Positions 1,576-14,076 are shown, numbered from the stretch's first letter. The stretch: DNA of 14,243 nt from Marinicellaceae bacterium (GCA_050303435.1 JBNLBT010000085.1:1-14243), one strand, 5' to 3'. The notes: a model not told the origin generated them from the sequence alone. Numbers and translations: made by a program.

Positions 1576-1753
1576 GTTCAGAGGCGGCGTCATTGAACGT
1601 TGAGTCCTTCGTGCGCAGGAATCAATCCCAAAGACGAAGGAACATGGCTGCACTGACCGTTCATGCACCTGCACAACCGCTGGTACAATAACACACCACG
1701 GGAAGCGCCGCCGGTGCGACACTGGCGGCACATTGAAACCGAGGTGATTGAAC

Positions 1754-2632
1754 ATGAACATTTTGAACAGACAACGGGTGCGGGTGATGTGGCTGGCGGT
1801 GCTTTTGGCCGTGGGTGCTGTGCAGGCGCGCGATTTTGAAGTGCAGGTGCACGGCGAAGGTCAGCCGATGCTGCTGATTCCAGGATTGAGCAACCACGCC
1901 GCGGTGTGGGACGAAACCGTGGCTCGCTATCAAGACCGTTACCGCACGCACGCGGTGACCTTGCCGGGATTTGCCGGTGTGGCGCCGATGTCATACGAAG
2001 GCGATTACCTGGACGCGGTGACCGCGCAGTTGCTGGCCTACATCGATGCGCAGAAACTGCACAAGCCGGTCATCGTCGGGCATTCGCTGGGTGGCTACGT
2101 GGCCATGAAACTGGCCATTGCCCGGCCCAAAGCCTTCGACCGGCTGGTGATTGTCGACTCGCTGCCGTTCATGGCCGCCATGCAGGTGCCGACGGCCACC
2201 GAAGAAAGCATCAAACCGATGGCCGAAATGATGCGCAAAAACATGAACTCTAATGATGAGACCGCGCGTGCGGCAAGCCTGGACATGCTGTTGCCGAGCA
2301 TGATCACCGATCCTGAGCGGATCGCGCTGGCCAAACGCTGGGGCATGGATTCCGATCCGCACACGGTGGCGCAGGCCATGTATGAGTTGATGACGCGCGA
2401 TCTGCGCGACGAATTGCAGCAGGTCAAAATCCCGGTGCTGGTCATGGGCGCGTGGATCGCCTATCAGGGCTTTGGCATGACCCGCCAGCGGCTGCTGGAC
2501 AGCTACGGCGCGCAATACGAGGCCTTGGATGACCTGACACTGAAGGCCACCGACAGCGGGCGTCACTTCATCATGTGGGACGACCCTGAATTTTTCTTCA
2601 CCGAAATCGACGCCTTCCTCGCGCGGCCGTGA
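1754..2632 (+). CDS. Secreted or periplasmic alpha/beta-fold hydrolase (esterase/lipase-like), with signal peptide
   Basis: The N-terminus RVRVMWLAVLLAVGAVQA|RD looks like a Sec signal peptide. GHSLGG nucleophile elbow is present. GAGGTG RBS lies 7 nt upstream of ATG 1754; the track's TTG 1748 is a less likely start. The stop overlaps the next gene's GTG start (GTGA). Confidence 0.7.
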   Translation: MNILNRQRVRVMWLAVLLAVGAVQARDFEVQVHGEGQPMLLIPGLSNHAAVWDETVARYQDRYRTHAVTLPGFAGVAPMSYEGDYLDAVTAQLLAYIDAQKLHKPVIVGHSLGGYVAMKLAIARPKAFDRLVIVDSLPFMAAMQVPTATEESIKPMAEMMRKNMNSNDETARAASLDMLLPSMITDPERIALAKRWGMDSDPHTVAQAMYELMTRDLRDELQQVKIPVLVMGAWIAYQGFGMTRQRLLDSYGAQYEALDDLTLKATDSGRHFIMWDDPEFFFTEIDAFLARP

Positions 2633-3699
2633 ATTCCACCGCGCGCAACCACCGCAATTTCTGGCTGCTGAACGCCGCCGGGTGGGCCGTGTACCTGAGC
2701 ATCAGCGGGGTGTTTTTCGCCGCCATGAGCGGACAGATGAACCGCAACACCGCGCTGATCCAGGCACTGGCCTTTGCCTTGCTGGTGCCGGTCACCGGCG
2801 CCCTTCGGGCCCTGATCAAGGCGCGCGGCTGGGTCAACACCCTGGGTCGCCCCGGCGTCATTCTGGGTTTGTTGGGTTTGACGCTGCTGCTCTCGCTGGC
2901 GGTGCAATTCAGCGTGTCGCTGTTCATGATGTATGGCCTGGGGATGATGAACTGGTCGACGTATTCGGTGCCGGTGCTGGCGATGACCGTGGCGCAGACC
3001 TGGTTCATGCTGGTGGCCTGGCTGCTGTTGTATTTTGCCATCATCCACCGGCGCAACGCGCACCGCCAGGCGCTGGAGAAATGGCAGGCCGAAAGCGCTT
3101 TAAAAGCCGCCGAGTTGCACGCCCTGAAAGCGCAGCTGGACCCGCATTTCATCTTCAACTGCCTGAACAATCTGCGCGCGCTGGTGACCGAAGACGTGGA
3201 CCGCACGCGGCAGATGATCACGCATCTGTCGGAAATTCTCAAGTACACCCTGCACCACAACCGTCGGGAAAAAGTCACCCTGGGTGAGGAAATGGATCAC
3301 GTGGCCAACTACCTGGCCCTGCAGTCGCTGCACCTGGAGGCGCGCTTGCAGACTGCTGTGCAGGTGCCGCAGGCTTTGCGCAGCGCGCAGGTGCCGCCGC
3401 TGAGCGTGCAGTTGCTGGTGGAAAACGCCATCAAGCACGGCATCATGCATCGACCCGGCGGCGGTGAGGTGTCGATTGCGGCCAGCGCCGCACACGGTCA
3501 ACTGAGCGTGCAGGTGCGCAACCCCGGGGATTTGCAAAAGCACACCGCCGGCCATGGCATCGGTCTGAACAACCTGCGGGAACGGCTGGCGCTGCTGTGG
3601 CCGCACAACGCCGCATTGCATTTGCGTGAAGAGCGCGGCGCGGTGGTGGCAGATTTGCGGTTGCCACTGGAGACTGAAGGAGAACCCCGGCATGAATGA
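2629..3699 (+). CDS. Membrane sensor histidine kinase of the LytS/YehU (His_kinase PF06580-type) family
   Basis: Four to five N-terminal TM helices. The phospho-acceptor region ELHALKAQLDPHFIFNCLNNLRALV is the His_kinase (LytS-type) motif. An HATPase region (LLVENAIKHG..GHGIGLNNLRERL) is present. The GTG start overlaps the hydrolase stop. Confidence 0.75.
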   Translation: MNSTARNHRNFWLLNAAGWAVYLSISGVFFAAMSGQMNRNTALIQALAFALLVPVTGALRALIKARGWVNTLGRPGVILGLLGLTLLLSLAVQFSVSLFMMYGLGMMNWSTYSVPVLAMTVAQTWFMLVAWLLLYFAIIHRRNAHRQALEKWQAESALKAAELHALKAQLDPHFIFNCLNNLRALVTEDVDRTRQMITHLSEILKYTLHHNRREKVTLGEEMDHVANYLALQSLHLEARLQTAVQVPQALRSAQVPPLSVQLLVENAIKHGIMHRPGGGEVSIAASAAHGQLSVQVRNPGDLQKHTAGHGIGLNNLRERLALLWPHNAALHLREERGAVVADLRLPLETEGEPRHE

Positions 3700-4411
3700 A
3701 CACCCGATCACCGCCCTGGTGGTGGACGACGCGCGGCTGGCGCGCAAAGAACTTTTGCATCTGCTCAAGGCGCAGCCGGAAATCCATGCGCTGGGTGAGG
3801 CCGAATCGGCCGCGCAGGCGCGCGAATTGATCGCCGAACACGCGCCCGATGTGTTGTTTCTCGACATTCAAATGCCGGGAGAGGATGGCTTTGAACTGCT
3901 TGAGTCGCTGGATCACGCGCCGCAGGTGATTTTCACCACCGCCTACGATCAATACGCCATTCGCGCGTTTGAGCACAACGCCCTGGATTACCTGCAGAAA
4001 CCGGTCGATCCGGCGGCGCTGGCGCGGGCCATTAAACGCTTGGCCACGCGCGTGAAACCCGCAGAAGCATCGCGCAACGCGGCCCACCCGCGCCGCGTGT
4101 TTGTCAAGGACGGTGAGGCCTGCTGGTTTGTGCCGGTGGAACGCATCCGCCTGCTGGAAGTGGACGGGCATTACACCACGCTGCATTTCGATGACGCCGC
4201 GCCGATGATCGCCAAGACACTGAATCAACTGGAAAGCCGCCTGGACCCGGCGCTGTTTTTCCGCGCCAACCGCAATCAAATGATCAACCTTCAGCACATC
4301 GAAGACGTGCAGCCATGGGTGCAGGGCGTGCGCGTGCGGCTGAGCGACGGTCGCTGGGTGGAACTGTCACGGCGCCAGAGCCAGGCTTTCCGGGCGCGCA
4401 TGAGCCTGTGA
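3692..4411 (+). CDS. LytTR-family (LytR/AlgR-type) response regulator
   Basis: Receiver domain ALVVDDARLARKEL...VLFLDIQMPGEDGFELL, plus a C-terminal LytTR DNA-binding domain (FVKDGEACWFVPVERIRLLEVDGHYTTLHF...FFRANRNQMINLQHI). The ATG overlaps the kinase stop (ATGA). GAAGGAG RBS is upstream. Confidence 0.8.
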   Translation: MNEHPITALVVDDARLARKELLHLLKAQPEIHALGEAESAAQARELIAEHAPDVLFLDIQMPGEDGFELLESLDHAPQVIFTTAYDQYAIRAFEHNALDYLQKPVDPAALARAIKRLATRVKPAEASRNAAHPRRVFVKDGEACWFVPVERIRLLEVDGHYTTLHFDDAAPMIAKTLNQLESRLDPALFFRANRNQMINLQHIEDVQPWVQGVRVRLSDGRWVELSRRQSQAFRARMSL

Positions 4412-5521: not shown

Positions 5522-6655
5522 ATGACTATCAGAAAAAGAATCGTGATTGCAGAAAACGAACGCGGCCTGGTGTTTCGAGACCGGCAGTTTGTGGCGTGCC
5601 TGAAACCCGGCGTCGAATATTTTTGGGATCCGCGCAATCGCATCCAGGTGCGGGTGTTTGATGTCACCCGTGCGGAAGTGAACGATGCGAATGTGTTGAA
5701 CTGGCTGAAAGGCCGTGCCGATTTGATTGGCGTGTACTTTGATGAAGTGCGCACCAATGAAAATCAGGTGGCGTTGATTCGCTGCGATGGGCAGTTCATC
5801 GATTTGCTGGCACCGCAGTCGCGCAAAGTGTACTGGTCAGAACCGCTGTGCGTTGAGGCTGAGATCATCGACATCGCCGCGCAACCGCGCATCGATGCGG
5901 CCACCGTGCGCGTGTTGCGCAAAGCCCTGGCCAAAGGCGTGCTGGGGCAGGGCGTGCTGGTCAAGCAGATCAACAGCCAGTGCGTGGGTCTGTTGTCGAT
6001 CGACGGCGTGCACAGCGAAGTGTTGCCGGCTGGGACACACGCCTACTGGCGCTTCAACCGGGCCATCGACATCGTCGAGGTTGACACCCGCGTGCAGAAC
6101 ATGGAAATCAGTGGCCAGGAAATCCTGACGCGCGATAAAGTGTCTCTGCGGGTGAATTTGTCTGCGGCATTTCGCATCAGCGATGCCTTGGCGATGGTGC
6201 AGCAATTGTCCGACAGCAAGGCGTTTTTGTACACCGAATTACAACTGGCTGTGCGCAAAGCCATCGGCGGCAAAAACCTGGACGCCCTGTTGGCGGACAA
6301 ATCAGCAATCGACACTCAGGTGTGTGCCTGGGTGCGCAAGTCTCTGGACGGTCTGGGCTTGCAATTGCTGGATGTGGGCCTGAAAGACGTCATCTTACCC
6401 GGTGACATGAAAGCCATTTTGAATCAGGTGGTGGAGGCGGAAAAAGCCGCCAAAGCCAACGTCATCAAACGGCGTGAGGAAACCGCGGCCACACGCTCTT
6501 TGCTGAACACCGCGAAGTTGATGGACCAGTCCCCGACTTTGCGGCGTCTGAAAGAACTGGAGACTTTGGAAAAAGTCTCTGACAAAGTGGCGTCCATGAC
6601 CGTGTTTGGCGGGATCGAATCCCTGTTGCAGGATGTGATCAAAGTGCGTCAATGA
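5522..6655 (+). CDS. SPFH/band-7 (slipin/stomatin-like) domain protein with a ~190-aa N-terminal extension of unknown function
   Basis: C-terminal half (ISGQEILTRDKVSLRVNLSAAFRI...ILNQVVEAEKAAKANVIKRREETAATR) is a typical SPFH domain with a coiled-coil tail. ACAGGAGAAG RBS is upstream of ATG 5522. No N-terminal TM helix was seen. Confidence 0.7.
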   Translation: MTIRKRIVIAENERGLVFRDRQFVACLKPGVEYFWDPRNRIQVRVFDVTRAEVNDANVLNWLKGRADLIGVYFDEVRTNENQVALIRCDGQFIDLLAPQSRKVYWSEPLCVEAEIIDIAAQPRIDAATVRVLRKALAKGVLGQGVLVKQINSQCVGLLSIDGVHSEVLPAGTHAYWRFNRAIDIVEVDTRVQNMEISGQEILTRDKVSLRVNLSAAFRISDALAMVQQLSDSKAFLYTELQLAVRKAIGGKNLDALLADKSAIDTQVCAWVRKSLDGLGLQLLDVGLKDVILPGDMKAILNQVVEAEKAAKANVIKRREETAATRSLLNTAKLMDQSPTLRRLKELETLEKVSDKVASMTVFGGIESLLQDVIKVRQ

Positions 6656-6660
6656 ATGCA

Positions 6661-6698
6661 GCCCGTACAGGCCTGGCCTGTGCGGGCTGTTTTGTATT
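6661..6698. terminator. Intrinsic terminator between the convergent SPFH and DUF1801 genes, probably bidirectional
   Basis: 11-bp stem GCCCGTACAGG-cctgg-CCTGTGCGGGC followed by TGTTTTGTATT on the + strand. Confidence 0.7.
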
Positions 6699-6725: not shown

Positions 6726-7319
6726 TCAGGACGAGCGGTAGCGGTCATTCAGGCCCAGCCCGGCGCGGATCATCGGGGTGATTTTTTGCAACCGGTTTTG
6801 ACGCGTGTCGGCGCGTTTGGCCTCTGCGATGTACGCACTGTATTCCTTTTGTTTGTAGGGCGTCAGTGCCTTGAAGGCGTCGTTCAGTGTCTTGTCCTGT
6901 GCCAATGCAGCGGCCAGTTCCTCTGCCGGTTTGGCGACTTGTTTCTGCAGGGCAACCACCCGGCCCGCGCGGTGATTTTCTATGCTGGCGGCGATGTAGT
7001 TCTTGAACAGGGCGGCATCCGGAGCGCTGTCCTGTGTGAAGCGCCATTGGCGCATGGCCTGGGTTTTGCCGGGTTGTGCATTGATCAGCACGCCGGCCGG
7101 ATCCTCCAGCAAGGCGCCCTGATGGAACCACACCGCGGCGTGGTGCTTGAACGCCGCCAGGCCGATCAGGTTCTGTCCGTCCAGGGTGTAGGTCGGCGCG
7201 CCCCATTTAATGGTTTCCTGCAAACCCTGTTGCAGCAATTGCGCGCGCAAGGCGTGCAGCTGCGCGCCCCATTCGGGGTGTTTTTGCACATAGGTTTCGA
7301 AGGGATCGGGTGTGTTCAT
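6726..7319 (-). CDS. DUF1801/YdeI-OmpD-associated family protein
   Basis: MNTPDPFETYVQKHPEW...IKWGAPTYTLDGQNLIGLAAFKHHAAVWF resembles the DUF1801 domain, and the C-terminus TPYKQKEYSAYIAEAKRADTRQNRLQKI resembles the YdeI/OmdA tail. Start chosen at ATG 7319 (the MNTPD start) rather than the upstream track start. Confidence 0.6.
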   Translation of the reverse strand: MNTPDPFETYVQKHPEWGAQLHALRAQLLQQGLQETIKWGAPTYTLDGQNLIGLAAFKHHAAVWFHQGALLEDPAGVLINAQPGKTQAMRQWRFTQDSAPDAALFKNYIAASIENHRAGRVVALQKQVAKPAEELAAALAQDKTLNDAFKALTPYKQKEYSAYIAEAKRADTRQNRLQKITPMIRAGLGLNDRYRSS

Positions 7320-7362
7320 GACCGCCCCATGATACGGGATCGCGGGGTGTGTTGCAATTGAC

Positions 7363-7404
7363 AAAAAAACGGCGGCGCGTTTCAGGGCACCTAAACGCAC
7401 CGCC
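7363..7404 (-). terminator. Strong Rho-independent terminator downstream of the beta-helix gene, read on the - strand
   Basis: On the - strand: GGCGGTGCGTTT-aggtgccctg-AAACGCGCCGCC followed by GTTTTTTTG. Confidence 0.75.
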
Positions 7405-7412
7405 CAAAGGCA

Positions 7413-8921
7413 TCAATCGTCGAAATCGTGGGCGTATATGACGTCCGGAATGGACTGTTCAAAGGCGCCGATGTCGCAGCGCGGCAGGCCGTCGGCGTTG
7501 CCGTCCTGAAAGCGGTCTTCGCCGCGTTGGTCGGTGTTCAGGATCAAGCCGGTTTCGTCGCTGCAGCCGGTCGGATCGCCGCCGTCGATCAGCGCGCTGC
7601 CGGCGTTGGGCGCGCGCGTCGGTGTGGGGCCGCCGTTGTCGGTCAGGCCATCCAGCTGTGGGTCAATGGCGCCGCCGGCGCCGCTGTCACCGGACAAGTC
7701 GTTGCCGGCCAGCGTGAGCCCACAGCCGGCCACATCGCCGATGAAATTGTAATCGTCTGAGTTGCCATTGCCGCTGCAATCCGGCCCGGCGCCGCCGTTG
7801 AGTGTTTGATTGTCTGCCAGCACGGTGTTTCTGATCAGCACACCGCTGTTGAAAAACAACCCGCCGCCGCTGCCGCCGACGTCTTCGGCGTTGGCGATGT
7901 TGCGGGTGATGGTGCTGTTGAGGATTGCGGTGAATTCGCCACTGAACGAGCGCAGGTACAGGCCGCCGCCTTCGTTGCCGGCGCGGTTGCCGTCGATGGT
8001 TGAATTGATCACCACGTGGGTGCCGTTGGACGAATAGATGGCGCCGCCGCGCTGCTCTGACGTGTTGTCGGCCAGGGTGGTGTTTTCAATGCGCATGACG
8101 CCGCCTTCCTGGATGTTGAAAATGGCGCCGCCGCGCAGGGCCGATTGATTCAATTCAAACAGCGAGTCGGTGACGCTCAGATTGATCACCGAGCCGATGG
8201 CCTTGCGCAGCGAGATGGCGCCGCCGTTGCCACTGCTTTTGTTGTTGATGAAGAGGCTGCGCAGGATGGTGGCATCGATCTGCCCGGGGCCTTCGCTGCT
8301 GGCGTCCAGATCAATGGCACCGCCGGTGCCATTGGTGACCGCGTTGTTGCTGAATACGCAGTCTTCAATCAGCAGCGTGCGCCCACTCGCGTCGCCTTTG
8401 AACACCACCGCGCCGCCGCCATTGGAGGCGCTGTGAGAGTCGATGAGGCAATTGCGCAGGGTCAGATTGGCCGGCTCATCCATGCGCACTGCGGCGCCGT
8501 AGGCACCGCCGTCCAGCAGCTGCATGTTTTCGACGCGCAGTTCGGCGTCGCTGACGAGAATCGGACTGGTGTCATTGCCTTGCAGGCCGATCTGAGCACC
8601 GACGGGGGCAAGAATTTCCAGCGCTTCGGTGACCGCCGGCAAGCCGTTGACGCTGACGTCAATGACGGCGTTCAGTGGCAGGCCGTCGAACTCAATGACG
8701 TCGCTGCCGACCGCGCCGGCGCCGCATTCTCCGGCACTGCCGCCCGAGGCCGAGTTGTTGTTGGCGGCCAGAATGGCCTCGCGCAGCGTGCATTCGCCGT
8801 CGTTGTCAATCAGTGTGCCGGTGCTGTTGACTGTGATGGTGGCGGCGCGGGCCGTGGCCTGGCACAGACCCAGCGCGAGCAGCGCGATCAAGAGGGCATG
8901 GGTTGCGGTTGTTCTGTTCAT
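7413..8921 (-). CDS. Secreted right-handed parallel beta-helix repeat protein with an N-terminal CSLREA-like motif
   Basis: Signal peptide MNRTTATHALLIALLALGLCQATARA. The motif ECTLREAILAANNN follows the signal peptide. More than ten repeats of the GGA(I/V)/GGGL type (GGGAVVF, GGAIDL, GGAISL, GGAIFN, GGAIYS, GGGLYL, GGGLFF) with N/S-rich turns. C-terminal motif ...PRCDIGAFE. GGAGAGG RBS lies 5 nt upstream of ATG 8921; the upstream in-frame extension in the track is rejected. Confidence 0.7.
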   Translation of the reverse strand: MNRTTATHALLIALLALGLCQATARAATITVNSTGTLIDNDGECTLREAILAANNNSASGGSAGECGAGAVGSDVIEFDGLPLNAVIDVSVNGLPAVTEALEILAPVGAQIGLQGNDTSPILVSDAELRVENMQLLDGGAYGAAVRMDEPANLTLRNCLIDSHSASNGGGAVVFKGDASGRTLLIEDCVFSNNAVTNGTGGAIDLDASSEGPGQIDATILRSLFINNKSSGNGGAISLRKAIGSVINLSVTDSLFELNQSALRGGAIFNIQEGGVMRIENTTLADNTSEQRGGAIYSSNGTHVVINSTIDGNRAGNEGGGLYLRSFSGEFTAILNSTITRNIANAEDVGGSGGGLFFNSGVLIRNTVLADNQTLNGGAGPDCSGNGNSDDYNFIGDVAGCGLTLAGNDLSGDSGAGGAIDPQLDGLTDNGGPTPTRAPNAGSALIDGGDPTGCSDETGLILNTDQRGEDRFQDGNADGLPRCDIGAFEQSIPDVIYAHDFDD

Positions 8922-9030: not shown

Positions 9031-11523
9031 TTATTCAGAATCGTTGACTGCCGTCTCGATCGGGGCCATGCGGTGTTGCAGCAGCAGGTCATTGAGCTCC
9101 CTGGAGTTGACCCCGTGCGCGCGCAGTTTGTCCAGCCACGGGTGGGCCTGGTCGATGTGGCCGGTGTGCAGCAGGGCGGTGGCCATGGTCAGTACGTAGT
9201 AAATGCTGTCGGAGGATTTTTCCACCACCGGACGGATCGCTTCAAGCGCCAGCAGCCGCTTGCTGCGCGCGGCGTCGTGCAGGCCCAGTCCGGCGTCGAT
9301 GTTGGCGGCTTGCATCAGGTCCATGCTGTAGTCATTGGCCGCCGAGTCGTTGCCCGGATCCAGGGCCACCAGATCGGCGGATATGGCCAGGCTCTTGCCG
9401 CTGTATTCACGCGCCAGGGGCACGTCGTCGGCGGCCAGCAGGACTTCGGTCATGAGATTGTATGAATAGGCCAGTTCGCGTTTGAAATTGCGGTTTTCCG
9501 GTGACCGCAGGCCCAGGCGTTGCCCCATTTCGATGGCTTTGTCCAGCGCCTCGCGGGCGCCGGCATGATCGTCCTGTTCGAGCAGAAAAAAAGCCATGTT
9601 GTTGTGCAGCACGCGCAGGTTGTTGTGCAAATCAATGCGTGTGTTCTGCAAGTCCACCGCCTGCTCGCCGATGCGCAGCGCGGTGCGCAGGGCATCAAGG
9701 CCCAGCGACAACGTGCCGTAATCCAGCTGATACCAGGCCATCGCCTGGTGCGATTGACTCAGGTATTTGTGCCAGTTGTGCACGTCGTCCGGTTTGCGCT
9801 GCAGGTTGGCTTGACTCAATTCAATCGATTCTTCAATGAAGCGCAGCGCCTGTTCGCCGGAAGCGTTTTCCAGGTGGTGCCAGGCCAGCAGGTTCAGTGT
9901 TTCCCACAAATTAAAGGCGTTGTCCGCCGGGGCCATGGCGCGCGCGTTGGCCAGCGCCGTGTGCAATTCCGCTTCGGCTTCGTCCAGGCGATTCTGCTGC
10001 GTTAATATGGTGCTCAACAAGGCGCCGATTTTGGCCAGTTTGCCCAGACGCAGGGCGCGGTATTCGGGGGCGTCGCGCAGATGATCCAGGCTGGCGCGCC
10101 CGGCCAGCAGCGCCTGTTGCGCGTCCTGGTGCAGTTTCAGATCCATCAGGACGCGGGCGATCTGCACGTAGTTCTGTGCCTTGTGCCAGTGAAATTGCGG
10201 GTCGTCGACGCGGCCTTCGAATTGGCGCAGATGCGCCAGAGACTGTTCGGTGATGTCCAGCAGCAGATCGGTCTTGCCCATGTTGTCGAGTTTTTCATAC
10301 AGGTTTTGCAGCATGAAATTGAGCAGCCCGTCGGAGGCATTGCGGGCCTGCTCGGCGCGGATTTTCTGCTGGCGGATGTCGTGGGTGTATTTCAACGAGA
10401 AGCCGATGGCGGTCGCACACAACAGCAGGGCCACGGCGGTCAGGCCTTTGTGTCGGCGAATGCTCTTGCCCAGCACGTGACCGATGCGGTTGCTCTTCTC
10501 CGCGATCGGCAGGCCATGCATCAGGCTGTACAGGTCGTTTTTCAGGGCCGTGATGCTGGCGTAGCGCCGCTCCACGCGCCGCTGCAGGCACAATTCAATC
10601 ACCCGGTGCACATCGGCGGGCAGCGCGCGGGCAAATTCCTCATCGGCGTGAAACGGGTGGCGCGCCGGCGATTCAGCGCACACATCGGTGAGGGCCTGTT
10701 GCTGCAGGCCTTTGAGCAGCAGGTACAGCATCGCGCCGCAGGCGTAGACGTCCACGCGCGCGTCGATGGCCTGCCCCTGCAGTTGTTCCGGGGCCATGAA
10801 ACCCGGGGTGCCGAACGCGGCATTCACCGGGTGTTCCTGCCAGCGCTGTGGATTGACCGAGATGCCAAAATCGACCAGCACCGGCGTGACGATGCCGTGG
10901 CGGTGTTCCACCAGGATGTTGCCGGGTTTGATGTCCATGTGCACGATGTGGTGCTCGTGGATGTACTCCAGCGCTTCACAGATTTTCAACATCAGCGCCA
11001 GCACTTCGTTGCGTGTGCACGGCTGTGTTTTGACGTGGGCATCCAGTGTCGGGCCGTCGATGTATTCCAGGGCCAGCCACGGCCGCCCGTCCTCGCTGTG
11101 GCCGGCGTCCAGGATGGGCACAATGTACGGGTGGCGCAGGTCCGCCAGAATCTGCATTTCCTGCAGGAACTGCTGGCGGGAAAAATGCTGCCCGCTGTGC
11201 GCGTGCAGAAATTTGATCACCACGGTTTTCTGATACAGACCGTCGGCGCGTTTGGCCAGATAAATCTCGCTTTGACCGCCTTCGGCGATTTTTTCCAGCA
11301 AGCGGTAGCGTTGCAAATCGGCGGCCTGAATGGTTGGGGGTTGGTCAAAAACGTTGTGCAACAATTGGTCCAGTTGCTGGCCGATTTGCGCTTGAATCAG
11401 GGGCCGGTCAGCGGCCATCAGGCCGTCGGCCTTGAGCGCGCGCATCAGTTCTTCGCCGTGCAACTGGGGATTGGATTCGATGAAGGCCTGAATTTTATCC
11501 CAGTCTTCGAACGGCTCACTCAT
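9031..11523 (-). CDS. Membrane Hanks-type serine/threonine protein kinase with a single TM helix and a ~430-aa TPR-like C-terminal (periplasmic) sensor domain
   Basis: Kinase motifs VVIKFL (the ATP lysine), HHIVHMDIKPGNILV (catalytic loop), VDFGIS (DFG) and GTPGFMAPEQ (APE). TM helix LTAVALLLCATAIGFSL. Repetitive helical C-terminus. The start ATG overlaps the sigma stop (ATGA). Confidence 0.8.
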   Translation of the reverse strand: MSEPFEDWDKIQAFIESNPQLHGEELMRALKADGLMAADRPLIQAQIGQQLDQLLHNVFDQPPTIQAADLQRYRLLEKIAEGGQSEIYLAKRADGLYQKTVVIKFLHAHSGQHFSRQQFLQEMQILADLRHPYIVPILDAGHSEDGRPWLALEYIDGPTLDAHVKTQPCTRNEVLALMLKICEALEYIHEHHIVHMDIKPGNILVEHRHGIVTPVLVDFGISVNPQRWQEHPVNAAFGTPGFMAPEQLQGQAIDARVDVYACGAMLYLLLKGLQQQALTDVCAESPARHPFHADEEFARALPADVHRVIELCLQRRVERRYASITALKNDLYSLMHGLPIAEKSNRIGHVLGKSIRRHKGLTAVALLLCATAIGFSLKYTHDIRQQKIRAEQARNASDGLLNFMLQNLYEKLDNMGKTDLLLDITEQSLAHLRQFEGRVDDPQFHWHKAQNYVQIARVLMDLKLHQDAQQALLAGRASLDHLRDAPEYRALRLGKLAKIGALLSTILTQQNRLDEAEAELHTALANARAMAPADNAFNLWETLNLLAWHHLENASGEQALRFIEESIELSQANLQRKPDDVHNWHKYLSQSHQAMAWYQLDYGTLSLGLDALRTALRIGEQAVDLQNTRIDLHNNLRVLHNNMAFFLLEQDDHAGAREALDKAIEMGQRLGLRSPENRNFKRELAYSYNLMTEVLLAADDVPLAREYSGKSLAISADLVALDPGNDSAANDYSMDLMQAANIDAGLGLHDAARSKRLLALEAIRPVVEKSSDSIYYVLTMATALLHTGHIDQAHPWLDKLRAHGVNSRELNDLLLQHRMAPIETAVNDSE

Positions 11524-12065
11524 GTCTGCATGCGGCTGGACAGCATCATCAGCGCGCTGTTCCAGTCGCGGTCGATGGTGCGCACATTGACCGCCAGAAG
11601 TTCGGCTATTTCACGGTTGCTCATGCCGCCGAAAAAGCGGTAGACAAACACCTCTTCCAGCCGCGCCGAGTAGCGACTGAGTCGCTGCAGATTGTCTTCC
11701 AGGTCGATCAGCCAGTCGACCTGATTGTGCAGTCCCGGCGGTTCGGCCGCGTTGTCGGTCACGGTTTGTTCGTTCAGCACCGGTTTCAGGCGCCTGGATT
11801 CGTTGATCAGAATGTGCCGCATCGCCAGCGCCGAAACGGCGAAAAAGTGGTTGCGGTTCTGGTAGGTCTTGTCCTGCTGTTTCATTTTCAGCCAGGCTTC
11901 ATTGACCAGCATGGTGGTGTTGATCTGGTGGTTGTGAATTTTCAGCTTTTGCGATTTGGCAATTTTTTTCAGGTGGGCATACACGCGCTCAAAGTCGTAG
12001 TTTTCGTCCAGTTGAAAACCGACGGTGCGTTTGTTGATCAATCGCGTGATGGGAATGGATTCCAT
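11520..12065 (-). CDS. ECF-type sigma-70 family sigma factor lacking the region-2 DAED acidic motif (NTTM instead); the type associated with a Ser/Thr kinase
   Basis: Region 2 (FERVYAHLKKIAKSQ...INTTMLVNEAWLKM) and a region-4 HTH (GGMSNREIAELLAVNVRTIDRDWNSA) are present. Thr50/Thr51 occupy the positions of the usual D/E residues. It is translationally coupled to the downstream kinase. Confidence 0.7.
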   Translation of the reverse strand: MESIPITRLINKRTVGFQLDENYDFERVYAHLKKIAKSQKLKIHNHQINTTMLVNEAWLKMKQQDKTYQNRNHFFAVSALAMRHILINESRRLKPVLNEQTVTDNAAEPPGLHNQVDWLIDLEDNLQRLSRYSARLEEVFVYRFFGGMSNREIAELLAVNVRTIDRDWNSALMMLSSRMQT

Positions 12066-12099
12066 GAAATGCTGCCCGCTGCTTGTGCCTCTGTTTTGA

Positions 12100-12148
12100 A
12101 CTATAGCACAAATCCTGCGCCGAAAAACAGATTGACATGAGGGTCAAT
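12100..12148 (-). promoter_or_regulatory. Putative promoter of the sigma gene (extended -10 TGcTATAGT on the - strand) with an upstream palindrome ATTGAC-N6-GTCAAT
   Basis: On the - strand, ...TGTGCTATAGTtcaaaacagaggcac...ATG. The palindrome sits at + strand 12131-12148. No convincing -35 was found. Confidence 0.35.
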
Positions 12149-12222
12149 GGGTGGGCGCGAAAATTTGTGAGGCACGCCTCAATTTCCGCAGGCAATGCAC
12201 AACAAGCGATCTCGGCCTGCGG

Positions 12223-14076
12223 TCAATACAGCCGTTCTCCGGCCGCTTTGATATCCTGGCCGACGTCACCCAGTGAATCGATGTCGACCAGTATGAAGTG
12301 CCCGTCAAAATCAATGCCGTGATCTTCGGGTACCGCCTGATCGATGTCGCTGTCAGCTTGCATCAAACACAAGAGAATCACAAACGGCACGTCCGCCGGC
12401 TGTTTCAATTGTTTGCTGGCCAGCCAAACCTTGCGGATGGATTGCAATTTTTGCAGAGAGGCGCGCAATCGCGCTTTGGCCGCGTCACTGATCTCGGCCG
12501 GCAAAAAAACCGAATTTTCATTCAGATCGTGCATGTCTCGATACAAAGCCTGATGCCGGTCGTGCTGTGCTTCCAGCTTGCGCAAGACGGTTTCAGCTTT
12601 TGCCGTTTCGCCGCGCAGCAGGTGGTGGCGGTACAAGTCTTCACCGGCCTGTTGCAGGGGGTGCGGACTGTGCAGCACACGCATCAACAGCGCCTCGCCG
12701 CGTTCCGGTGCATCCTGCAGCAAACTGGACCCCAGGTAATACATGGCAAAGGTGTTGTCTGGCTCAATGGCCAGCATGGCTTCAAGGGTGGGCCGTGCGT
12801 GCTGAGCACCGTGCAGATTGATTTCAATTTCAGCCCGTTCTCCCAGGCTGTCCATATCGTCTGCCGGATTGGCGTTGAGTTCCGCCAGACGGGCCCGGGC
12901 GCTTTGCGCGTATTGGTGCACTTCCTGCCAGCCTTTTTGGTTTTCTTCAGCCCATTGCCGGTCAAAGTAGTCCAGACAATCGTCCAGTGAGTCCGACAGC
13001 CAGACGAGAGCCGCACTGGGTTCATTCAATGGGCGCCAGACCGGCTCAACCCGCAAGGCCTGAAGCCGGTCCTTCAGTGCAGGGTGCGTGTCGCTGTAGC
13101 CGGTGGCCAAATTCAAGGCTTGTTGCAATGCCAGCTCGGCCTGAGCTGTGTCCAGCGAATGTGAGGCCAGGTGCTGCACCAGTTCATGGCCCACACGGCG
13201 ATTGATTTCAGCGTGCGTCTGCGCGGTCTTTTTCAAGGGTTGCCAGAACGTCTCATCGACAAAATGGCTGTGCAGTTCCGTCACAATCAATGCGACTCCC
13301 AGGTCTTCGGCGGACGTCAGCTGGGCAGCCACTGCGTCGGCTTCGAATTCATTGGCGCGCGCGAGCACAAATGAATACGCATTGAAATGCGGTGCGTAGC
13401 GATTAAAAAACGCACCCAGTAACCAGCGGGCAGACCCGTTGCTTTGATTGACCGCGTGCATGATGCGCATCCAGGTCATTCGCAGTCGGTAGACCCATGC
13501 ATTGAACTTGGCGTGGTCACCGCGCAAGTGCCCCATTTCATGCGCCACCACGGCCAATGCCTGTTGCGGATTCAGGCTGGCCAGCAACTGAACCCCCAGA
13601 ATAAGGGTGTTTCTGTGCCAGCCGAAAATGCCCAGGCGCGGCAGCTGCTGGATGGCCGCATTCATCTCGAAATTCAGCTTGACCTGGTGGATCGGCGGGG
13701 TGTGCAGGCGCCAGGCCATTTCATCGAGGTGCTCAAACAGACGGGGTGCCTGTTGACGTTGGATGATCCGGCCGGGCAGGCCCTCGAAGCGGATCATCAG
13801 GGAGCGTCCGATGACCACAATCAGGGCAACGATGAGCAGGATGAATTTACTTTTAATCAACAAAAGCAAAAATCCGTGACTGAAGATGACCAGCAATGCG
13901 GTGCCTGCGAACAGGCCCAAGGCCAGTGAAAAAAGCACAAACAGATAAGCGTAACCCAGCCAGGCAAGCCATTTCAGGCGGCGCTTGTAGGCCGCCGGGT
14001 TGCGTTCATAAACAGCGCGTGCACGCGCGGCCGTGCGCTCAAATTCTTCGCGCAGTTGGGTGCTGGATTTTGTCAT
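12223..14076 (-). CDS. Membrane-anchored M48-family zinc metallopeptidase (HEXXH) with a TPR-like C-terminal domain
   Basis: N-terminal hydrophobic helices (WLAWLGYAYLFVLFSLALGLFAGTALLVIF and FLLLLIKSKFILLIVALIVVIG). Zinc-binding motif VVAHEMGHLRGDH plus a downstream NEFEAD (a candidate third zinc ligand). Long helical C-terminus with TPR-like repeats. Confidence 0.7.
   Translation of the reverse strand: MTKSSTQLREEFERTAARARAVYERNPAAYKRRLKWLAWLGYAYLFVLFSLALGLFAGTALLVIFSHGFLLLLIKSKFILLIVALIVVIGRSLMIRFEGLPGRIIQRQQAPRLFEHLDEMAWRLHTPPIHQVKLNFEMNAAIQQLPRLGIFGWHRNTLILGVQLLASLNPQQALAVVAHEMGHLRGDHAKFNAWVYRLRMTWMRIMHAVNQSNGSARWLLGAFFNRYAPHFNAYSFVLARANEFEADAVAAQLTSAEDLGVALIVTELHSHFVDETFWQPLKKTAQTHAEINRRVGHELVQHLASHSLDTAQAELALQQALNLATGYSDTHPALKDRLQALRVEPVWRPLNEPSAALVWLSDSLDDCLDYFDRQWAEENQKGWQEVHQYAQSARARLAELNANPADDMDSLGERAEIEINLHGAQHARPTLEAMLAIEPDNTFAMYYLGSSLLQDAPERGEALLMRVLHSPHPLQQAGEDLYRHHLLRGETAKAETVLRKLEAQHDRHQALYRDMHDLNENSVFLPAEISDAAKARLRASLQKLQSIRKVWLASKQLKQPADVPFVILLCLMQADSDIDQAVPEDHGIDFDGHFILVDIDSLGDVGQDIKAAGERLY

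Follow-up and report, generated by a model that had tools for sequence, protein, structure and literature searches.

Members of the ECF43 group of ECF sigma factors are characterized by loss of the acidic DAED motif, a conserved Thr (consensus QTTA), synteny with a kinase gene and the lack of an anti-sigma factor, and the group has already been expanded to more than 900 members (PMC13147305; PMC8999054; PMC8103513; PMC7826278). According to the summaries of Iyer et al. (2020) in PMC8999054 and PMC8103513, the ECF43 member EcfP of Vibrio parahaemolyticus is intrinsically inactive until PknT, a co-encoded membrane Hanks kinase, acts on it. The same summaries give the EcfP slot as an uncharged STTA, whose second Thr serves as the acceptor and the single switch of a system that reacts to polymyxin and governs genes for resistance to it. 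A further ECF43 pair, EcfK and PknS of X. citri, is encoded within a type VI secretion cluster by adjacent genes and has no anti-sigma factor. EcfK keeps one acidic residue in its slot (QATE) and carries an experimentally mapped phosphothreonine, T51, together with the linker phosphosites T104, T106, S108 and S110, the last two assigned at low confidence; phosphorylated T106 is proposed to contact the RNA polymerase core, and a T51A variant is still functional in X. citri whereas T51A/T106A is defective (PMC13147305). Because EcfK T51A is functional and T106 matters, a single-Thr switch is not universal in ECF43.

Other sigma-kinase combinations are less similar to the locus described here. 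Groups ECF59, 61, 62, 217, 267 and 283 likewise have a Ser/Thr kinase nearby and usually lack an anti-sigma factor (PMC7826278), but unlike the sigma factor studied here they keep a DAED-like acidic motif (PMC8999054). In M. tuberculosis the ECF sigma factor SigH is phosphorylated directly by the Hanks kinase PknB, a distinct case (PMC13147305): SigH does not belong to ECF43, has the anti-sigma factor RshA, is not encoded in a linked pair with its kinase and retains an intact DAED motif.

The window analyzed here is a stretch of 14,243 nucleotides from a Marinicellaceae bacterium (GCA_050303435.1, JBNLBT010000085.1:1-14243), the features of which are collected in Table 1. In an initial annotation, made from the sequence, one ECF sigma gene was described as translationally coupled to a gene for a membrane Ser/Thr kinase, and the sigma factor was proposed to be activated by phosphorylation. 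Both open reading frames lie exactly where they had been placed, and the sigma stop codon does overlap the kinase start codon, in the sequence ATGA.

Table 1. Features of the sigma-kinase locus and its flanks, numbered from the first nucleotide of the window.
Feature	Position	Strand	Basis
Secreted CSLREA / PMP-repeat / choice-of-anchor-Q beta-helix-type protein gene, downstream of the pair, same strand	7413..8921	-	Family matches; signal-peptide-like start
Hanks-type transmembrane Ser/Thr kinase gene, 830 aa	9031..11523	-	Pkinase, E 4.4e-41
C-terminal all-helical TPR-like sensor domain, presumably periplasmic, aa 385-830	9034..10371	-	TPR_12; AF2 model
Single transmembrane segment, aa 359-379	10387..10449	-	Hydropathy
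Kinase catalytic domain, aa 73-327	10543..11307	-	Pfam; Hanks residues
Catalytic loop H195-M-D197-I-K199-P-G-N202, Met for the HRD arginine (non-RD)	10918..10941	-	Translation
Kinase N-terminal extension, aa 1-68, three predicted helices	11320..11523	-	AF2 model; clade alignment
ATGA overlap of sigma stop and kinase start codons	11520..11523	-	Sequence
ECF sigma factor gene, 181 aa, TIGR02999 / PF07638 family, ECF43-like	11520..12065	-	ORF, translation, family profiles, EcfK alignment
Linker segment E99-E108 (E99, T101, T103, D104, E108), possible second regulatory site	11742..11771	-	BLASTP against EcfK
Codons N49-T50-T51-M52 in the sigma2.2 DAED/DxxD slot, followed by LVNEAWLKM	11910..11921	-	Sequence; hhalign to RpoE
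Thr51 codon, predicted phospho-acceptor switching the sigma factor on	11913..11915	-	Conservation; alignment to EcfK T51
TGcTATAGT, possible extended -10 housekeeping-type promoter element of the operon	12100..12108	-	Sequence reading, weak inference
M48 membrane protease gene with TPR-like tail, 157 nt upstream of sigma, same strand	12223-14076	-	Family matches

The sigma factor is recognized by the NCBIfam model TIGR02999 (135 bits, cutoff 126.15) and by PF07638 (Sigma70_ECF, residues 6-172, E 1.9e-22), whereas TIGR02984, a model of the Planctomycete type, reaches only 23 bits. These two families, which we take to be equivalent to ECF43, place the protein in that group, TIGR02999 serving as a proxy for the group HMMs. 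By Pfam profiles the architecture is the minimal one of sigma2 and sigma4 only, with Sigma70_r4_2 covering residues 134-166 (29.1 bits, cutoff 25.7). The best relatives are found in Marinicella (44-50% identity), and at E <= 1e-10 the family as a whole yields about 3,900 cluster representatives, which come from Proteobacteria, Acidobacteriota, Gemmatimonadota, Verrucomicrobiota and Planctomycetota. Homology with EcfK extends from end to end, at 28% identity over the full length by BLASTP (E 3e-20) and with a probability of 99.7% by hhalign (E 2e-25). The EcfK sequence used was rebuilt from published supplementary MS peptides (PMC13147305), among which one table entry shows a doubled T; the oxidised-Met index marks this as a typesetting artefact, the true peptide being AGLQATELVHEAWMR.

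The central claim of the initial annotation was that NTTM stands in place of DAED directly before the LV.E..L..W block. A PDB search with the single sigma sequence gave no match, and one with the sigma family profile matched solved ECF sigma factors almost only over sigma4; the slot was therefore placed by a profile-profile hhalign comparison between the sigma family and E. coli RpoE. N-T-T-M falls on D-V-P-D of RpoE in this alignment, with no acidic residue at the four positions, the codons of T50 and T51 lie at 11918-11913, and LVNEAWLKM follows, all in agreement with the claim. The slot is likewise consistent with DxxDxxQE, the consensus given in PMC13147305, and E56 of that block is kept. 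Across the family the slot reads NTTA, QTTA or QPTA. Thr51 is invariant in 39 aligned homologues, and the third position of the slot is Thr in 113 of the 121 representatives recovered by an unbiased search of the family; this share is taken from the representative search and not from a genome scan, the motif counts of which are biased because its pattern required Thr. Thr51 also aligns with the mapped phosphothreonine of EcfK, at the identical position one residue ahead of LVNEAW here and LVHEAW in EcfK, although the EcfK slot retains an acidic residue and NTTM has none. Both T50 and T51 had been named as switch residues; as judged from these alignments the conserved phosphosite position is T51, not T50, and on the published description of EcfP the second Thr of its uncharged slot would be the counterpart.

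Linkage to a kinase gene is equally consistent. Of the 76 informative genome loci, which come from the scan that required Thr, 71 have a Hanks kinase gene no more than 6 kb from the sigma gene and 56 have one directly downstream of it; a kinase gene also follows the sigma gene in all five closer relatives examined. The spacing in relatives is tight, with overlaps of 4 nt (L002) and 8 nt (L005) and gaps of 7-22 nt (L003 and L004). Conservation of Thr51 together with kinase adjacency is not a matter of chance, the Thr being nearly invariant family-wide and the adjacency recurrent. It is thus probable, on sequence grounds, that the pair constitutes an ECF43-type two-gene module in which the Hanks kinase phosphorylates a Thr of the co-encoded sigma factor, which lacks the acidic patch, and thereby turns it on. 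The sigma factor might instead be active with neither phosphorylation nor an acidic patch, its kinase being merely co-transcribed and serving other substrates. In favor of this, the proposed mechanism is carried over by homology at 28% identity to EcfK, E56 is retained, and EcfK T51A functions in X. citri; but near-invariance of Thr51 over thousands of relatives combined with recurrent tight kinase linkage would be hard to explain in such a case, and kinase dependence has been demonstrated experimentally for three ECF43 members, which leaves a phosphorylation-free sigma factor quite improbable.

Whether Thr51 would act by itself depends on the linker between sigma2 and sigma4. BLASTP pairs E99, T101, T103 and D104 with T106, S108, S110 and D111 of EcfK, setting TVTD opposite SLSD, in a loop where the alignment is uncertain and MAFFT gives another register. 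One alternative is accordingly two-site control of the EcfK kind, in which T101 or T103 would be phosphorylated besides or instead of T51 and the linker phosphate would touch the core. The linker phosphosites of EcfK, the defect that appears in T51A/T106A but not in T51A, and the alignment of T101 with S108 and of T103 with S110 all lend this some plausibility. It nevertheless appears unlikely, though worth keeping in view: in the same alignment the T106 position is already acidic, S108 and S110 are themselves low-confidence sites lying in a loop of uncertain register, and T101 and T103 are not conserved within the close clade. EcfK needs T106, the counterpart of which is probably Glu99. The position may thus be occupied by a constitutive Glu, and T51 would therefore be the single switch, which would make the sigma factor of the same type as EcfP as that protein is summarized.

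The kinase is most similar to a Marinihelvus protein (36% identity), and its best solved relative, by sequence and by fold, is 9EED, the kinase domain of X. citri PknS (PMC13147305). Fold searches match PknS and PknB; with the full kinase model, kinase-domain matches dominate and the sensor domain is uninformative. The catalytic motifs had been called intact. This holds for every invariant Hanks residue, including K104 and D197 (G82/G83, K104, E122, H195, D197, K199, N202, D218-F-G220, T239, P245-E246, D258 and R320), and the subdomain residues from G82/G83 through R320 are invariant in kinase alignments, but it does not extend to the HRD arginine. In the window kinase this triplet is H-M-D, which makes it a non-RD Hanks kinase; members of its clade have HMD, HKD or HLD, whereas HRD is present in 47 of 62 sigma-adjacent kinases. 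The activation segment of the window kinase contains no Ser/Thr between S222 (in DFGIS) and T239 (in the P+1 GT), so activation-loop autophosphorylation is probably not used. PknS, in contrast, is an RD kinase with an activation-loop Thr243, and regulation of the window kinase may differ from that of PknS because the HRD arginine is missing.

Ahead of the catalytic domain lies an extension that is alignable among six clade kinases and for which AF2 gives helices at residues 4-17, 24-32 and 41-59, with low to medium confidence. A phmmer search with residues 1-68 alone recovers only L002, apart from the window's own gene on L001. The extension of PknS measures 83 aa (PMC13147305), against about 70 aa here. 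No anti-sigma family match was found in the extension, and it was rejected as an anti-sigma domain on that ground. A catalytically impaired kinase could in principle use this segment of some 68 residues, alignable across the clade, to serve as a scaffold or anti-sigma-like tether and not as an activator, and the clade-wide non-RD loop and the activation segment devoid of Ser/Thr would be in keeping with such a role. The residues of phosphotransfer (K104, E122, D197, K199, N202 and DFG) are, however, all invariant, and the sigma factor has kept its phospho-acceptor Thr. Non-RD kinases, moreover, are normally active enzymes, as exemplified by PknG and PknI of M. tuberculosis. Catalytic impairment is accordingly very improbable, and an active kinase is the preferred reading.

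Hydropathy over 19-aa windows exceeds 1.6 in the kinase at residues 359-379 alone, with the basic stretch KSIRRHK on the N-terminal side. The large TPR-like C-terminal domain of the initial annotation, for which a repeat search had been suggested, is borne out by a TPR_12 match at residues 639-714 (32.6 bits, cutoff 30.1) and by about 20 AF2 helices over the domain (about 385/418 to 816); from about residue 440 onward the block-mean pLDDT lies mostly within 80-98, after lower values of around 70-82 for residues 385-440. From topology we infer that the domain is periplasmic. The suggestion that the sensor domain differs from those already described does not hold for its domain class, because PknS has the same layout of N-terminal extension, Hanks domain, one transmembrane helix and periplasmic TPR domain, in a protein of 833 aa. 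Only the sequence is clade-specific: phmmer with the C-terminal domain matches the close clade only, and similarity to the sampled sigma-adjacent kinases of Xanthomonadales and other bacteria, a sample that does not include the PknS sensor, is not detectable.

Unlike the EcfK pair, the window pair lies beside genes for an M48 protease and a secreted CSLREA protein. Family profiles find no anti-sigma match in the flanking genes of the 14-kb window, and the gaps on either side of the pair (157 nt and about 110 nt) contain no ORF and are too short for a further gene, so that the reported absence of an adjacent anti-sigma gene is upheld. A conventional circuit, in which the M48 protease or an unrecognized anti-sigma factor regulates the sigma factor and the kinase is secondary, could be considered since the M48 gene is a same-strand upstream neighbor of the sigma gene in the window and again on a second contig that has the same sigma, and the protease it encodes is embedded in the membrane and has its HEMGH motif intact. 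Such a circuit is nonetheless extremely improbable given that no anti-sigma domain is matched, that no M48 gene is present beside the pair at the closest orthologous locus or in four other relatives, and that ECF43 members characteristically lack anti-sigma factors. The M48 protease was also rejected as an anti-sigma-like partner, having no family match and a gene that is not conserved beside the pair.

The product of the downstream gene begins with a signal-peptide-like sequence, MNRTTATHALLIALLALGLCQATA, from an ATG at 8921, with GGGAGAGG just before it. A standard scan found no terminator-like site between the kinase and CSLREA genes, and no CSLREA gene was found beside the pair in relatives; it is possible that this gene is co-transcribed with the pair or is a target of it. 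Of the seven sigma genes compared, six (those of five of six relatives and of the window) have elements resembling TGnTAnnnT upstream. The standard promoter and terminator scan around the operon returned nothing convincing and did not call TGcTATAGT. In the upstream regions of seven clade loci, no ECF-type target promoter, sought as a 5-mer and a 4-mer separated by a 15-19 nt spacer, rose above shuffled controls, and no ECF43 promoter consensus was found in the literature searched.

A phosphorylation-activated sigma factor, as initially proposed, is the reading best supported by family membership and by the alignment with EcfK T51. The sigma factor would intrinsically bind core RNA polymerase poorly, since uncharged N-T-T-M stands in place of the acidic sigma2.2 patch through which the beta-prime clamp helices are contacted. 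The co-translated membrane kinase, its N-terminal extension lying in the cytoplasm, would sense an envelope or extracellular cue through its periplasmic TPR-like solenoid and phosphorylate Thr51; the phosphate would restore negative charge, allowing the holoenzyme to form and the regulon to be turned on. By homology to EcfP/PknT and EcfK/PknS, it is thus the adjoining kinase that would control RNA polymerase binding through Thr51. The architecture itself is not novel, since loss of DAED, the Thr, kinase synteny and the lack of an anti-sigma factor are all among the published hallmarks of ECF43. The pair is an ordinary member of the group, because the phospho-switch design is a described hallmark of a large family.

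The gammaproteobacterial Marinicella/Marinihelvus clade might represent a distinct sub-type of ECF43, marked by a non-RD kinase, a linker contact hard-wired by Glu99 and a secreted beta-helix protein as output, but this is a rather doubtful proposition. If so, in the absence of activation-loop phosphorylation the signal might pass by TPR-driven oligomerisation or by docking of the N-terminal extension, Glu99 would hard-wire the linker contact with RNA polymerase and leave Thr51 as the only switch, and the output could be the product of the adjacent downstream gene, a secreted surface protein of the beta-helix type. The pair raises no new question; mainly, it confirms the ECF43 phospho-switch design in an uncultured marine-type gammaproteobacterial lineage. 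It adds the small comparative point that some ECF43-linked kinases are non-RD and that some of the sigma factors may have a constitutively acidic residue at the second phosphosite recently reported for EcfK. This could help to separate single-switch from double-switch members of ECF43.

The sigma, an ECF sigma factor encoded directly upstream of a Hanks Ser/Thr kinase, matches the Pfam family PF07638 Sigma70_ECF (E 1.9e-22) as well as Sigma70_r4_2. Among NCBIfam models it scores 135 bits against TIGR02999, passing the curated cutoff of 126.15; the runner-up is the generic sigma70-ECF superfamily model (49 bits), and the Planctomycete-type model TIGR02984 reaches 23 bits only. When a profile of 39 homologues was aligned with E. 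coli RpoE, the N-T-T-M of the sigma paired with the RpoE residues D-V-P-D, which make up the region 2.2 DAED/DxxD slot. This placement agrees with the DxxDxxQE consensus as quoted in PMC13147305, and E56, the Glu of the QE pair, is retained. The proposals of the initial annotation that NTTM replaces the DAED patch and that the sigma stop overlaps the kinase start both hold.

Features of the sigma-kinase locus and its surroundings
Feature	Position	Strand	Details
M48 metalloprotease gene	12223-14076	-	membrane protein, 617 aa; HEMGH motif, N-terminal transmembrane helices, TPR-like C-terminal half
Putative promoter	12108-12100	-	extended -10-like element TGcTATAGT
Sigma ORF	11520-12065	-	181 aa
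N-T-T-M codons	11921-11910	-	residues 49-52; LVNEAWLKM directly after
Sigma stop/kinase start overlap	11520-11523	-	ATGA
Kinase ORF	9031-11523	-	830 aa
Secreted protein gene	7413-8921	-	downstream of kinase; CSLREA N-terminal, Chlamydia-PMP-type repeats, choice-of-anchor-Q C-terminal
DUF1801/OmdA protein gene	6726-7400	-	next after secreted protein gene

Loss of the acidic patch is a hallmark of ECF43, a sigma group defined by co-occurrence with Hanks kinases. Its members lack the DAED motif, in place of which the consensus is QTTA with the Thr conserved in 88%, and have no anti-sigma factors; the group has been enlarged to more than 900 members (PMC13147305, PMC8999054, PMC8103513, PMC7826278). 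EcfP of Vibrio parahaemolyticus (STTA) is inactive until the kinase PknT phosphorylates its second Thr, whereupon it regains the charge needed for binding the beta-prime subunit; similar behaviour is described for EcfK/PknS of Xanthomonas citri and for a Hyphomonas pair (PMC13147305, PMC8999054, PMC8103513, PMC7826278). EcfK (Q8PF57) was reconstructed from mass spectrometry peptides given in the PMC13147305 supplement. The rebuilt sequence lacks residues 39-45 and about three close to the C-terminus, and its numbering is consistent with the published phosphosites. Over its full length the sigma is 28% identical to rebuilt EcfK (BLASTP, E 3e-20), and the sigma family profile matches EcfK with a probability of 99.7% (hhalign, E 2e-25). 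T51 of EcfK aligns with T51 of the sigma, the third residue of N-T-T-M and the predicted phospho-acceptor.

This residue is invariant in all 39 aligned sigma homologues. The nearest homologue, from a metagenome contig, is 63% identical to the sigma; those of Marinicella and uncultured relatives are 44-50% identical, and remoter TIGR02999 members about 30%. Searching 1.84 billion cluster representatives exhaustively with HMMER returned 3,857 matches at E <= 1e-10; of the best 150 of these, 121 had a readable slot. Among those 121, the first position is N (36), Q (34), S (17) or D (12), the second T (79), P (23) or A (13), the third T (113) or S (3), and the fourth A (70), E or D (16) or M (3), with NTTA the most frequent form (22 cases). 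NTTM is thus an ordinary variant of a motif found family-wide.

A second site in EcfK lies in the sigma2-sigma4 linker, where T104, T106, S108 and S110 are additionally phosphorylated. T106 is needed jointly with T51, and 77% of ECF43 members have Ser, Thr, Asp or Glu at its position (PMC13147305). BLASTP aligns RL-KPVLNEQTVTDNAAEP of the sigma with RLGQAVTLTISLSDGAARP of EcfK, pairing E99 with T106, T101 with S108, T103 with S110 and D104 with D111. If this register is right, the second contact would be constitutively acidic and T51 the sole switch, as in the single-switch EcfP; because MAFFT gives a different linker register, this reading of the Glu is kept conditional. A linker Glu possibly hard-wired in this way is of mild interest.

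The Pkinase domain of the kinase spans residues 73-327 (Pfam, E 4.4e-41), and its closest solved structure, by fold as well as by sequence (E 5e-36; PknB ranks lower), is 9EED, the kinase domain of PknS, the cognate kinase of EcfK (PMC13147305). The catalytic motifs, initially described as intact, are so with regard to the invariant Hanks residues, all of which are present (G82/G83, K104, E122, H195, D197, K199, N202, D218-F-G220, T239, P245-E246, D258 and R320) and do not vary in two alignments of relatives, one of 6 and one of 19, but the HRD arginine is absent, the catalytic loop reading H-M-D-I-K-P-G-N. The invariant residues are those of a catalytically competent kinase. Close relatives in the clade have HMD, HKD or HLD at this position; HRD is present in 47 of 62 kinases adjoining related sigmas. 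The activation segment (DFGISVNPQRWQEHPVNAAFGTPGFMAPE) contains no Ser or Thr between S222 and T239 of the P+1 loop, and this non-RD kinase may perhaps be gated otherwise than by activation-loop phosphorylation. The non-RD kinase clade is likewise of mild interest.

The kinase contains a single hydrophobic segment (359-379), flanked N-terminally by a basic stretch. In an AlphaFold2 model built from 19 sequences (mean pLDDT 82.5), three short helices precede the kinase domain, and residues 418-816 form about 20 helices; block means of pLDDT are mostly 80-98 from around residue 440 onward. A search for TPR repeats in the C-terminus, suggested earlier, found TPR_12 above its Pfam cutoff at 639-714. 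This predicts that the N-terminal extension and the kinase domain are cytoplasmic and are followed by one transmembrane helix and a TPR-like solenoid, which by this topology would be periplasmic. PknS (833 aa) has the same layout: its N-terminal extension of 83 aa leads into a kinase domain, and beyond the transmembrane helix the periplasmic region contains three TPRs (PMC13147305). Contrary to what the initial annotation had supposed, the sensor domain thus does not differ in kind; only its sequence is clade-specific, residues 385-830 matching only the five closest loci in a phmmer search.

In all five loci of closer relatives a kinase of 808-1077 aa directly follows the sigma, the spacing ranging between an overlap of 4 nt and a gap of 22 nt. 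The flanking genes vary, so it is the pair that is conserved as a unit. When one genome per species was scanned, at least 582 loci were found, in Proteobacteria (many Lysobacterales/Xanthomonadales), Acidobacteriota, Gemmatimonadota, Verrucomicrobiota and Planctomycetota. Among the 80 loci kept, a Hanks kinase lies directly downstream on the same strand in 56 and elsewhere within 6 kb in 15; five have none and four are too short to tell. Because the scan pattern demanded the Thr, these counts were not used for motif statistics. In some distant relatives, L031 and L054 (Acidobacteriota) as well as L011, L032 and L073, the kinase genes, sometimes two in tandem, lie upstream of the sigma instead of downstream, so gene order within the pair is not fixed family-wide. 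In three Marinicella-type loci (L004, L007, L008) a conserved divergent small gene with a lipoprotein-like N-terminus lies immediately upstream of the sigma; it is absent from the window and from the relative L002.

No anti-sigma gene adjoins the pair, as first proposed: the M48, secreted CSLREA and DUF1801/OmdA proteins match no anti-sigma family, and no ORF lies in the gaps. The M48 gene, on the same strand, precedes the sigma by 157 nt. A second contig (L001) with the identical sigma also has M48 upstream of it; in other relatives M48 is absent next to the pair. Within 11000-13000, G+C falls to 0.54-0.57 over the sigma and M48 genes, versus 0.60-0.63 over the kinase and secreted protein genes. 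The latter gene most likely starts at ATG 8921, which has an RBS-like GGGAGAGG and a signal-peptide-like N-terminus; its mechanical ORF start is 9092, overlapping the kinase. No terminator-like site was found between these two genes. In the relative L005 the gene after the kinase encodes another large secreted protein, which is adhesin-like (FG-GAP/Big_9/Cadherin).

Tentatively, the operon may be transcribed from the housekeeping-type extended -10 element TGcTATAGT; of the seven sigma genes compared, six are preceded by TGnTAnnnT-like elements. Such a promoter would be in keeping with control that is post-translational and not autoregulatory. Across seven clade loci, no shared bipartite promoter motif rose above shuffled controls. 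Just upstream of the putative sigma promoter lies a perfect inverted repeat, ATTGAC-N6-GTCAAT (12131-12148), which could be an operator for some regulator, and another of 8 nt occurs at 12186-12193/12215-12222.

Elsewhere in the window, an alpha/beta hydrolase gene (1748-2632, +) overlaps by 4 nt that of a LytS-type histidine kinase with His_kinase and HATPase_c domains (2629-3699, +), followed by a LytTR response regulator (3626-4411, +; true start probably later). Together (1748-4411, +) these constitute a LytS/LytTR-type two-component system unrelated to the pair. An SPFH/Band-7 (HflK-like) protein gene (377 aa, +, within 5522-6690), followed by a strong terminator-like hairpin (6658-6690; 15 pairs, 10 G-C), converges on the DUF1801/OmdA gene.

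By homology with the characterised pairs, the kinase would phosphorylate T51 of the sigma, and pT51 would stand in for the missing acidic patch and allow holoenzyme formation. The original suggestion of a phosphorylation-activated sigma is supported as a prediction of this kind by the alignment with EcfK and the recurrent kinase linkage. With a kinase whose architecture matches that of PknS, the pair belongs, as a typical member, to a very large family that has already been described.
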